From a virus: a DNA stretch of 64,000 bases. Shown here piece by piece: positions 22,363 through 25,374 of this stretch. The position numbers and the translations under genes are program-made. The stretch is from positions 36,520-100,519 of IMG/VR virus record IMGVR_UViG_3300049844_000277; one strand, 5' to 3'. The notes beneath the pieces are model-generated. The model saw only the letters and a list, made by a program, of their open reading frames with translations, did no database searches and was not told where the DNA came from. Position 1 is the first letter of the stretch, and each line of letters starts with the position of its first letter.

Positions 22363-25300
22363 TTATACAGGCTGATTTTGTTGCGCCATTTGCGCCTTCG
22401 CCTGCTGTCCTTGTTGGTTCTGAAGATCTTCCAGGCGTTGAATGACAACCGCATGCATCACAGCGTCTTCCTTACTTAAGCTATCCAACTGTGAACGCCT
22501 AGAACCAACATCCAGCCCCATGAGCTGCTGCACTATCTGGTCAGCCTGCGCGATGACCGCCTGCTGGTCGTAGTTGAGCCCAGGAGTACCTTGAGCCTGT
22601 AGCTGAACCTGCTGGGACAAGTTATTCTGTAGTTTTCGTAGCTCATTCTGGACGCGCTGATTGTGCCGCGCCTCATCAAGAGTTTCTTGTAGACGCTTCT
22701 CTCGTTCTGCGTCCAAATCAATGTCGAGTCGCTCTAGTATGGTAGTCATTGAGACGTACGAGGGACCCGCTTGCCCGGTAGCCATGCTGAGCAGTAATTG
22801 TTTAGACTCAGTGTCATCGACCATCTTCAAAGGCGTAAGTTTCGCCTCTATCTTCTCCCAGCCAAGATACCGGGACATCTGGTCGCTGTACCACTGTAGT
22901 AGGTCATTCATATCATCCGCGTGCCCTTGCGTTTGATTCTGAATGAGCCGGAGAGTTGCCTCCATGCCTGCTTTAGTTAGTCCACCGTAGAGGAACTCCT
23001 GCGGAATACCTAACGCAGCCATAATGCTCTTCTCAGCTTCTTGAAGCTCACCGAGCGTTAACATCGCCCGTCCATCGCCACCAAGATTGGATACACCAAG
23101 AGCTACTGGTGCCATCATTATGTGTAAGGGGTCACGTCGCCAGCGACGAATATTTTGTTTCATTTCATCTTGCCAACGCGCAAGAGAAATCATTTGCGTA
23201 AAATCTTGCTGTCCGTTTTGTGCGGGATGCAAGATACGCATTGGCACGACGTGCTCCAGCGCGATCGAATTTTTAGTAGCCCCACCCGCGATACAAAACG
23301 TGGAATCCTCCGCGATCTTGAAGTCAATGTATTGTTCCTCTTCCGACTCCTCTACCACGCTCACTCTCGCCGCAAAATAATCTTTCCAGAAAAAGCCACT
23401 CTTGCCGATGGTAATCTCTTCCGCATCCTCCCAATTCCATAGCGCGTAAAGCCGCTCTTGGGACGCACCGCTAACCCGTACGTGGTAACTCGGTCCGTTT
23501 GGGGTAATAACACGCCCATCAGCAAGCGCGTGAATCGGGGTAATGTGCTCACGAATCGTCGCAATACATCCTACGTGAAGGAGCATACGGTAAACATCAT
23601 ACGCAAGGCCCGCACTGGAGGTGGCGAGAGTATCTTGCCCTTCCCGCGTGTGACCATCCGCCTCCCAGAGACCTTTCAAGAATGCGAGCTTTACAGAATC
23701 CGGCGCATGAAATACTTCCGAAGGAACGCGCTTAACGCGCGCGGTTCCCGGAACCATGCCCTTGATGAGAGCCTTCACAATCACATCACACAAGGTAACC
23801 ATGCTACAGTTACCTCTCTGATTGTATCCACCGCACTCCAAGCCAAACTCTCGCCGAATTGCTTCCCGGAGGGGCTCTTCCGTCTTACTGCCCATCGCAA
23901 TCATAACGGTACGCTGGTTACAGGAACCATTTCCAACGTAATGCCCGAGGATATACGCGAAGTCCTCTGTCATCGGGCGCGTCGCGGGGAGGCGTTTTGG
24001 AACGGACCCTTCTTTCAGCTTCCTACGCGCAATCTTCCCAGGGACTCCCTTCACATGCTCACCGGCGCTCTCCGCCTCAAACGCCTGCGCGGAGGGTAAT
24101 GACATCGCGCTGTAAACGTAATTCTCGGTGTTCGCGAAACCGGTGTACTTAGCAACATCTACCTGCTGCGGCTCCGACGGAATTGTCCGGGGGTAGAGGA
24201 TATAATCACCCTTCTCGAACTGTTCCGCGGGACACATCACCTCTTCGTACAAATGCGGATTCTGAAGAATCTCCGACGACGTCTGCTTGTCTTTCGTATC
24301 CGACCGACGTGCGTCGCTTGTCCGTCGAAGGGTAAGGATGGGATGGTGCGGGGAAAATACCCCGCTGAGATGCCGAAGCCCCGAAAGCGTAATACGGCAT
24401 CCGATTTCATCATCCTTCGCATCCCGATACCACTTCTGCTCGACTGGACGCCACCGCCCGAGGTGTGTTCTCACCAAGTCGCCAACACGTACATCATCCG
24501 CGGGCACGAGACCGGTAGACGTCTCAATGAGTGTATCGAGACTGACGCACTCGTTCGCCTTCCTTAGCGTCATGGTGTAGAGGAAGAGCTTGATTGTCGA
24601 CGCAAGCGGAGGAAATCCCCACTGCTGGTCAATACCCGAAGGACTTGGAACCTTGATATGAAAAAGAGCGTCCTTCTCAAAACGAAACGTCTTGTTGTCT
24701 CGAATGTTTTCCAAGAACTCCATAGGCATCGAATTAATAAGATGCTTTGACCCCGATTTAACTTGGTCCTTAACGTCCTGCGGGATGTTATAGTAGTATA
24801 CAGATTGTCCCGTAATCGGATTGTAATCTATATCCATTAGCTTGGGATCCCACCGAATAATATGGACCCGGCTAGCAGCTAGAATCTTACGGTCAACGAC
24901 TGTACCACGCACATCTCGCTTGCAATGCAGGCAGTGGTAGGTGAAAGCCAGCGATTTCAGCTCAAACTTGTAATCAGTGTGCTGAATAGCAACGAGTTGC
25001 TGACAACTAGGACACTTCAGACTACGAACGAACGGCTTATAAATTGATGTAAAATGATTGCCATATATGTGCTTATCGAGCGACGCCATGAGAAGCGCAC
25101 TCTTAATCTTCAAAGTTTTTTCAAAAAGACGGCGATAGTTGCGCCGGAGTGCTTCATTCGATGTTCCGTACTCGAGGTCAGTTACGACGAGCTCTCCAAA
25201 TTTACGCAGAGCCGCGTAAACATGTGCACTATTATACATCAAATATTCGCACCATTTAAAGAGATCTTTTAGCTTTCTTGGTACAAAACCCGTTAGGAAG

Positions 25301-25374
25301 TCATGTGCAGGGTTTGGGTGTGAAGCCGCCCGGTCAAAAACGGACATTGTATCAGTGTTAGGAAGGTCAGCCAT
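22363..25374 (-). CDS. Putative portal protein (about 576-aa extein) interrupted by a 427-aa LAGLIDADG intein.
   Basis: Size and architecture after intein removal fit a portal. The C-terminus is a Q-rich coiled coil (LQNNLSQQVQLQAQ...QNQQGQQAKAQMAQQNQPV) typical of portal barrels. The portal call itself is by analogy only. Confidence 0.55.
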   Translation of the reverse strand: MADLPNTDTMSVFDRAASHPNPAHDFLTGFVPRKLKDLFKWCEYLMYNSAHVYAALRKFGELVVTDLEYGTSNEALRRNYRRLFEKTLKIKSALLMASLDKHIYGNHFTSIYKPFVRSLKCPSCQQLVAIQHTDYKFELKSLAFTYHCLHCKRDVRGTVVDRKILAASRVHIIRWDPKLMDIDYNPITGQSVYYYNIPQDVKDQVKSGSKHLINSMPMEFLENIRDNKTFRFEKDALFHIKVPSPSGIDQQWGFPPLASTIKLFLYTMTLRKANECVSLDTLIETSTGLVPADDVRVGDLVRTHLGRWRPVEQKWYRDAKDDEIGCRITLSGLRHLSGVFSPHHPILTLRRTSDARRSDTKDKQTSSEILQNPHLYEEVMCPAEQFEKGDYILYPRTIPSEPQQVDVAKYTGFANTENYVYSAMSLPSAQAFEAESAGEHVKGVPGKIARRKLKEGSVPKRLPATRPMTEDFAYILGHYVGNGSCNQRTVMIAMGSKTEEPLREAIRREFGLECGGYNQRGNCSMVTLCDVIVKALIKGMVPGTARVKRVPSEVFHAPDSVKLAFLKGLWEADGHTREGQDTLATSSAGLAYDVYRMLLHVGCIATIREHITPIHALADGRVITPNGPSYHVRVSGASQERLYALWNWEDAEEITIGKSGFFWKDYFAARVSVVEESEEEQYIDFKIAEDSTFCIAGGATKNSIALEHVVPMRILHPAQNGQQDFTQMISLARWQDEMKQNIRRWRRDPLHIMMAPVALGVSNLGGDGRAMLTLGELQEAEKSIMAALGIPQEFLYGGLTKAGMEATLRLIQNQTQGHADDMNDLLQWYSDQMSRYLGWEKIEAKLTPLKMVDDTESKQLLLSMATGQAGPSYVSMTTILERLDIDLDAEREKRLQETLDEARHNQRVQNELRKLQNNLSQQVQLQAQGTPGLNYDQQAVIAQADQIVQQLMGLDVGSRRSQLDSLSKEDAVMHAVVIQRLEDLQNQQGQQAKAQMAQQNQPV
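23269..24549 (-). mobile_element. Intein 4 (427 aa, LAGLIDADG type) within the portal-like gene.
   Basis: - Starts CVSLDTLIETSTGLVPADDVRVGDLV.
- DOD motifs FAYILGHYVGNGS and LAFLKGLWEADGH.
- Ends FCIAGGATKN with +1 Ser.
- Boundaries codon-verified (gca at 24547-24549 = Cys; att at 23269-23271 = Asn). Confidence 0.8.

Follow-up and report, generated by a model that had tools for sequence, protein, structure and literature searches.

An intein with a LAGLIDADG endonuclease domain in the predicted portal protein gene of an Arash/D69-related tailed phage

The portal protein gene of a tailed phage with a genome of about 170-180 kb, related to the phages Arash and D69, is very probably (roughly 0.9, judged from sequence and its comparison) interrupted in frame by a class 1 LAGLIDADG intein. 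The gene lies in the window, that is, the whole 64,000-nucleotide stretch of DNA that was analyzed (positions 36,520 to 100,519 of the IMG/VR virus record IMGVR_UViG_3300049844_000277). The list of open reading frames (ORFs) and their translations confirms a minus-strand ORF at 22363..25374 with a product of 1003 amino acids (aa). The precursor has a predicted mass of 113.5 kDa, and splicing would yield a mature portal protein of 66.0 kDa and a free intein of 47.5 kDa. The gene and its parts are, in window coordinates:

22363..25374, minus strand: portal precursor gene, 1003 codons plus a stop codon at 22363-22365
25381..25385, minus strand: GAGGG, a Shine-Dalgarno-like site of putative function, 6 nt upstream of the ATG at 25374
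24550..25374, minus strand: N-extein, aa 1-275, ending at the invariant LRKANE; supported by alignments and the portal fold
23269..24549, minus strand: intein, aa 276-702 (427 aa), with a LAGLIDADG homing endonuclease domain set into a probable HINT splicing domain
22366..23268, minus strand: C-extein, aa 703-1003, supported by the secondary structure of the model and by portal fold matches

The boundaries of the insert are set by its absence from close relatives. When the spliced extein sequence was searched against 5.8 billion proteins, 660 homologs were returned, mostly of 570-600 aa, and the 427-aa block is missing from homologs of 576-580 aa that include P0002 (88% identity) and P0003 (87%). 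Alignment with seven intein-free homologs of 29-88% identity, among them P0002, P0003, Arash Gp204 and the protein of Vibrio phage D69, places the block unambiguously and exactly between LRKANE and AIALEH or SIALEH, a site sequence that is invariant. The initial annotation had put the intein at 23269..24549, which is exactly residues 276-702, and both the codons and the empty-allele alignment agree with it. Cys276 is encoded by TGC (24549-24547), Asn702 by AAT (23271-23269) and Ser703 by TCG (23268-23266), and the translated junctions read ...LRKANE/CVSLDTLIET......FCIAGGATKN/SIALEH..., where a slash, here and below, marks the junction between extein and intein. The N-terminus MADxPN, which begins at the ATG at 25374, is conserved among aligned homologs; the public gene call P0001 (994 aa, from a JGI contig of 167,875 bp) is nine codons shorter at its start than the 1003-aa ORF.

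The residues expected at the junctions of a class 1 intein are present: Cys1, the block B His, the terminal Asn427 (Asn702) and a Ser at the +1 position. The motifs of the insert are:

24520..24549, minus strand: intein block A, CVSLDTLIET, with Cys276 (Cys1) as nucleophile
24328..24363, minus strand: intein block B, GVFSPHHPILTL, an S-x-x-H version of T-x-x-H, aligned with TPDHP of P0123
23923..23961, minus strand: LAGLIDADG motif 1, FAYILGHYVGNGS, with Asn482 at the catalytic Asp/Glu position
23650..23688, minus strand: LAGLIDADG motif 2, LAFLKGLWEADGH, with the catalytic Asp573 intact
23266..23331, minus strand: intein blocks F and G (YIDFKIAEDSTFCIAGG-ATKN) and the +1 Ser703, with a penultimate Lys and the terminal Asn702

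The SPHH of block B (aa 342-345) aligns with the TPDH of P0123, an intein in an NCBI 2-oxoacid:ferredoxin oxidoreductase for which precomputed Pfam hits to Hint, Hint_2 and Intein_splicing exist. The Pfam family LAGLIDADG_3 (PF14528) matches the insert at E 6e-12, and its NCBIfam matches are confined to models that contain inteins: the Tes intein, DnaB, V-ATPase A, GyrA-with-intein and RNR. A phmmer search of PDB sequences finds TliVMA at 4e-6 and PI-PkoII at 2e-4. A Foldseek search with a low-confidence AlphaFold model of the intein, used for a coarse fold match only, ranks whole LAGLIDADG inteins first (TliVMA, PI-SceI, PI-PkoII and PhoVMA), followed by I-DmoI, with 400-490 aligned columns to TliVMA, PI-SceI and PI-PkoII at E 4e-9 to 4e-7. 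The description of the insert as a LAGLIDADG intein is thereby borne out by the LAGLIDADG_3 match, the matches to solved inteins, the residues C1, N427 and S+1, and exact boundaries against empty alleles.

The host protein is recognized as a portal by distant homology and by fold. Translated searches (tblastn) of GenBank phages with the extein match Vibrio phages D69, D181 and D148 at 33% identity (about 1e-85), Gp204 of Salmonella phage Arash, annotated 'portal protein', at 31% identity (E 2e-78), and gp14 of Bacillus phage G, also a 'portal protein', at 22% identity over 78% of the extein (E 9e-8). Every one of these alignments is a single piece that runs continuously across the insertion point. 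Gp204 was detected in virions purified from Arash, where 32 unique peptides gave 93% coverage (PMC10585845). The spliced extein was modeled by AlphaFold with 76 homologs, and the model has a predicted local distance difference test score (pLDDT) of 73 and a predicted template modeling score (pTM) of 0.55. A Foldseek search of the PDB with this model gives 105 matches at E<=1e-3, the best at E 7.5e-8, and the best 50 of the 105 are all portals, including those of G20c, P74-26, HK97, T1, HFTV1 and E217; a portal fold is thus what the extein matches, and the initial annotation, which would have been refuted by an extein unlike any portal fold, stands. The order of a divergent SNF2 helicase gene, the portal gene, an ORF of about 165 aa and an RNA polymerase gene is kept in Arash, D69 and metagenomic relatives.

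The sequence libraries do not recognize the extein. Pfam, PHROGs and NCBIfam give no significant family for the spliced extein, and its lone PHROG match is to phrog_64 'portal' at E 0.015, over the C-terminal coiled coil. Neither phmmer with the extein nor hmmsearch with the 76-sequence profile finds anything meaningful among PDB sequences beyond weak noise from the L33 zinc ribbon. The term 'portal-like' in the initial annotation therefore stands on fold and distant homology and finds no backing in Pfam, PHROG, NCBIfam or PDB sequences. The N-extein also carries a distinctive element:

24922..25014, minus strand: four invariant cysteines, CPSC ... CLHC (C121, C124, C148, C151), in the N-extein

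These cysteines (aa 121-151) are invariant in the alignment of the 76 homologs, in Arash and in D69, and they are modeled in beta strands with pLDDT >90. There is weak profile similarity to the L33 zinc ribbon, and the element is probably zinc-ribbon-like, with metal binding presumed. We know of no such four-cysteine element in the solved portals.

Several observations weigh against an intact intein in a portal. The Pfam Hint_2 match to the insert (E 2e-4) reaches 21.9 bits and its threshold is 28.4 bits, such that the profile search of the insert is significant for LAGLIDADG_3 and falls short for the splicing domain. The AlphaFold model of the intein, made from 5 sequences, is poor (pLDDT 59.7) and weak at both termini. 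Lys701 takes the place of the usual penultimate His (...ATKN), and Asn482 takes the place of the catalytic acidic residue of LAGLIDADG motif 1, with motif 2 (LKGLWEADG) intact. The near-identical empty and occupied alleles P0009 and P0012, described below, were compared at the protein level, and proteins alone do not tell gain from loss. Lastly, the placement of the site in the portal structure is approximate because the stem and clip of the model have pLDDT values of 53-71.

A penultimate His is usual in inteins, yet not universal, and some inteins that lack it reportedly splice, as is said of work by Chen, Benner and Perler from 2000. Among inteins at the same portal site, here called site a, the K-N ending is also present in P0124, P0126-P0128, P0130 and P0131, and others end in H-N.

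After an N-terminal alpha/beta part, the extein model has a helix at 256-282, a strand at 285-290, a helix at 304-320, a strand at 332-337, a helix at 343-361, a short loop, a 37-residue helix at 374-410 and C-terminal helices. In canonical portals such as SPP1 gp6 and that of G20c, the order is a descending stem helix, the clip, an ascending stem helix, the tunnel loop, the long wing helix and the crown. By this comparison, the site between residues 275 and 276 would fall low in the descending stem helix, an invariant helix that ends seven residues further on, ahead of the clip. The C-extein would then comprise the remainder of that helix and the clip, followed by the second stem helix and the tunnel-loop region, and finally the long wing helix and a Q-rich helical crown. 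An insert of 47.5 kDa in a stem helix should block ring assembly, and therefore splicing would have to come first.

The splicing pathway can be proposed from established intein chemistry. The 113.5-kDa precursor would be translated whole, and Cys276 would carry out an N-to-S acyl shift at the Glu275-Cys276 bond. The thioester would be passed on to the hydroxyl of Ser703, and cyclization of Asn702 would free the 47.5-kDa intein. An O-to-N shift would then yield a normal Glu275-Ser703 peptide bond in a portal protein of 576 aa and 66 kDa.

The distribution of the intein among related alleles suggests that it moves. The intein-free allele P0009, found in at least 24 contigs of up to 182 kb, has an extein 99.5% identical to that of the intein-bearing P0012; the two differ at 3 of 579 residues (A276S, V277I and S490N), and two of the three differences are the +1 and +2 residues. 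At the DNA level, the empty site of the intein-free locus L006 reads AAGGCGAACGAA up to the insertion point and GCCATCGCGCTCGAGCAC after it (also written as ...CTCCGCAAGGCGAACGAA and GCCATCGCGCTCGAGCACGTCGTG...). The +1 residue could be classified in 94 of the 120 closest listed homologs: it is Ala in 85 intein-free proteins, Ser in 6 intein-free proteins and Ser in all three that bear an intein. The six intein-free proteins with Ser may be scars of precise loss. The Ser is encoded by TCG in the window and in P0012 and by AGC in P0011, and more distant occupied alleles have Cys or Thr at +1; therefore, the nucleophile has been kept throughout. Locus L007 carries an intein of the same lineage (53% identity) at the same site in a portal that is just 30% identical, which is the expected signature of horizontal spread. 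On these sequence comparisons, the element moves, or did so until recently, between relatives that co-infect, with the +1 and +2 codons apparently travelling along.

Whether the endonuclease still drives such movement is less certain. Motif 1 reads LGHY[V/A]GNGS in the window, P0011 and P0012 only, and GWYxGDG in all other site-a inteins examined; Asn482 lines up with the Asp of TliVMA (...liaDGt) and the Glu of PI-PkoII (...vsEGy). In LAGLIDADG enzymes, each motif supplies one metal-binding carboxylate. With Asn in motif 1 and Asp elsewhere at site a, homing by the intein's own nuclease is therefore doubtful, and the nuclease of this sub-lineage may be weakened, a nickase or dead.

There is accordingly close to an even chance that the intein splices with a dead or nicking endonuclease and owes its maintenance to vertical descent and to ordinary homologous recombination when phages co-infect, rather than to homing of its own. 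This would refine the best explanation, with which it is compatible. It is suggested by Asn482 at the metal-binding Asp/Glu position and by the presence of the intein in just 3 of the 120 closest listed homologs; it is opposed by the Asp retained in motif 2 and by the P0009 and P0012 pair, which fits homing with a short co-conversion tract. The ratio of nonsynonymous to synonymous substitution rates (dN/dS) also bears on the question. Between P0011 and P0012 (DNA in L005 and L004), which form the sole informative pair, as synonymous sites are saturated between the window and either of them, dN/dS is 0.078 for the whole intein, 0.042 for the N-splicing region, 0.054 for the endonuclease domain, 0.030 for the C-splicing region, and 0.018 and 0.038 for the exteins. 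The endonuclease value is as low as that of the splicing domain, which speaks for a working nuclease. However, this is not decisive because the whole insert must fold to release an essential portal, and a low dN/dS of the endonuclease domain could simply reflect that need.

The portal family of this clade is also rich in inteins at other positions. A word-indexed search with the intein alone found 3 relatives only, and an exhaustive search of 1.84 billion representatives with an intein profile gave 20,818 matches at E<=1e-3 and 483 at E<=1e-30, with portal homologs making up 39 of the best 150. Across these homologs (P0124-P0265), sites were assigned from the domain coordinates of hidden Markov models (HMMs) together with reading of the junctions, given that a global MAFFT alignment of multi-intein portals merged neighboring sites. 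Five insertion sites were read, in the numbering of the window extein:

Site e, between residues 102 and 103: LDYN/C...TGN/CYGN
Site a, between residues 275 and 276: the site occupied in the window
Site d, between residues 298 and 299: SDPF/C...THN/T
Site b, between residues 321 and 322: RWRRD/C...THN/S
Site c, between residues 374 and 375: GGLSY/C...CHN/SG

Three inteins are present in the precursor P0124 and four in P0142 (2405 aa), and the window portal has site a alone occupied. Distant portals that share a site have inteins 42-49% identical there; between sites a, b and d the inteins are paralogous over their full length, at 25-33% identity; and those at site c are of a different, larger kind (about 510 aa). 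The portal family is an intein hot spot, with its five sites clustered around the stem, clip and tunnel region. It could be argued that the hot spot is an unusually dense one in which the site-a intein of the window sub-lineage has been co-opted, with splicing as a timing or quality-control gate on portal assembly, and is no longer a purely selfish passenger. The sub-lineage intein is under strong purifying selection despite the loss of one catalytic endonuclease residue. This proposal as a whole is nevertheless considered improbable.

Still less likely, and given little credence, is that the insert is a decayed remnant that does not splice, in which case the gene would be a pseudogene or would code for a portal with a permanently inserted domain. 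The missing penultimate His, the sub-threshold Hint_2 match and the lost catalytic endonuclease residue would fit decay, as would one in-frame TAG within the intein of the related allele in L007. Against this stand the retention of C1, the block B His, the terminal Asn and the +1 Ser, strong purifying selection across the whole intein, and a +1 nucleophile that is kept in all intein-bearing alleles, as Ser by either TCG or AGC codons and also as Cys. In addition, no second portal homolog was noticed among the large ORFs of the window, which were not searched systematically for one.

The portal gene of L007 (JGI 3300017987 Ga0180431_10000032) is otherwise one frame of 1105 codons. Its single in-frame TAG, at 5998..6000 of that locus, aligns with a Gln (CPAEQ) of the window's intein, and the public gene call is split in two there. 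A sequencing error, a nonsense variant or amber suppression could account for the TAG; genome-wide recoding looks unlikely because the other genes of the contig are called long.

That the extein is some other large alpha-helical virion or replication protein is scarcely credible given the portal folds and the homology to Arash Gp204 described above, even though it has no significant match in Pfam, PHROG, NCBIfam or PDB sequences, the gene lies between a helicase and an RNA polymerase gene outside any recognizable head module, and the pTM of the model is just 0.55.

Around the portal gene, a scan for promoters found nothing above shuffled expectation (terminators were scanned too). Plus-strand ORFs over the intein region, such as that at 23458..24099, were rejected as spurious; they are antisense to conserved coding sequence that is under selection. 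Directly downstream of the portal gene is a minus-strand ORF of 165 aa at 21846..22343, with no Pfam hit on record, and the position and length (166 aa) of an ORF 3' of the portal gene are kept in three relatives with a listed neighborhood.

The initial annotation counted the portal intein as the fifth independent intein site in the window. This count holds, with three sites in the RNA polymerase and one in the DNA polymerase, and the five inteins have at most remote similarity to one another. The other features are:

12377..20887, minus strand: RNA polymerase ORF, with insertions that have intein ends at aa 930-1283, 1745-2122 and 2251-2748
14522..18100, minus strand: two LAGLIDADG inteins in the RNA polymerase, aa 930-1283 and 1745-2122, with junctions GDKL/C...WCGN/TGRHGNKG and TTPK/C...SVSGN/S
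12644..14137, minus strand: third RNA polymerase intein, aa 2251-2748, inside the universal beta' Mg-binding motif NADFDGD
35149..35562, plus strand: mini-intein of the family A DNA polymerase, aa 656-793 (138 aa), CVAGETV...GFVNKN/S, without an endonuclease domain; ORF 34144..37527

The first two RNA polymerase inteins are about 24% identical to each other, and the second is absent from the relative in L005. The 138-aa DNA polymerase mini-intein, like the portal intein, has Lys and not His before its terminal Asn.

The third RNA polymerase insert has unusual ends. Intein-free relatives read (N/x)xDYDGD followed by T or A at this point in 25 of 27 fragments, the remaining 2 of which do not span the motif, and also in Arash and D69. 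All three occupied alleles (the window, L005 and the distant L007) read ...DGN/C at the N-terminal junction, and the C-terminal junction is ...VVWD/TFQIHVP in the window and in L005; the L007 locus stops short of this junction. After canonical splicing the product would read DYDGN-T and lack the third catalytic, Mg-binding Asp; removal of 'NC...VVW' would restore DYDGD-T exactly, by no known chemistry. Possible explanations include an intein with a C-terminal Asp and an insert that does not splice and completes the active site with its own last Asp. The same RNA polymerase has a Pfam 'InPase' domain (inorganic pyrophosphatase, PF18823, E 1.6e-32) at aa 590-709, about 18761..19120 on the minus strand, within the beta-like portion of this polymerase, a beta/beta' fusion. 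This segment is without a counterpart in Arash Gp206, and the domain is also listed for RNA polymerases of metagenomic relatives.

Portal inteins have been described previously. Six were reported in cluster C1 mycobacteriophages (Kelley et al. 2016, PMC5050341), and a 2025 survey of actinobacteriophages (bioRxiv 10.1101/2025.01.02.630785) found five polyphyletic groups of portal inteins with site diversification, in the setting of LAGLIDADG inteins that are sporadic among related phages and have diversified insertion sites in phage genes. Both agree with the statement in the initial annotation that portal inteins exist and are a minority class. The actinobacteriophage examples resemble that of the window in host gene and type, in that an intein lies within the portal gene of a tailed phage. 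They differ in portal family, given that the actinobacteriophage portals belong to InterPro IPR009279 and the window extein matches no portal HMM, and in phage group, as the window phage is unlike actinobacteriophages in being Arash/D69-like, of about 180 kb, and in encoding an RNA polymerase.

Among solved structures, TliVMA and PhoVMA (7qss, 7qsu, 7qst), PI-PkoII (2cw7) and PI-SceI (1vde, 1lws) share with the window's intein a double-motif LAGLIDADG domain within a splicing domain (of the HINT type, probably so in the window) in about 430 aa, Cys1 and the terminal Asn, at just 12-18% identity. They have Asp or Glu in motif 1 and a penultimate His where the window's intein has Asn and Lys, and their hosts are a V-ATPase or a DNA polymerase rather than a portal.

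Closest among the characterized portals are Arash Gp204 and the homologs of Vibrio phages D69, D181 and D148 (31-33% identity over about 80%, E 2e-78 to 5e-86). Arash and D69 share with the window a divergent helicase, a small ORF and an RNA polymerase beta gene as neighbors, the invariant LRKANE/AxAxEH motif and the four-cysteine element. Unlike the window's portal, those of Arash, D69, D181 and D148 are intein-free with Ala at +1, and Arash Gp204 is proven in virions, whereas the window's protein is known from a metagenome alone. Bacillus phage G gp14 is a distant, intein-free homolog from a much larger phage (498 kb) with a Gram-positive host. The 'moraphage' paper (PMC12619734) was rejected as a description of the clade, as those phages are without RNA polymerase genes.

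The call of a portal intein is correct and well delimited, and it is not surprising, as portal inteins are already documented; the portal family and the phage group are what differ. It leaves the current understanding of inteins and of portals unchanged. Gene callers and HMM libraries give a hypothetical protein with a LAGLIDADG domain, and the gene should instead be annotated as a portal precursor with an intein. The finding contributes one more portal intein, a well-delimited one from outside the actinobacteriophages. Naturally occurring alleles with and without the intein, which differ almost only at the +1 and +2 residues, offer a clean system for the study of homing or co-conversion, and the natural Asp-to-Asn variant of motif 1 can be compared with Asp-bearing relatives at the same site. 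Inteins are tolerated at five conserved positions, which show where the portal is under the strongest constraint in both DNA and protein.

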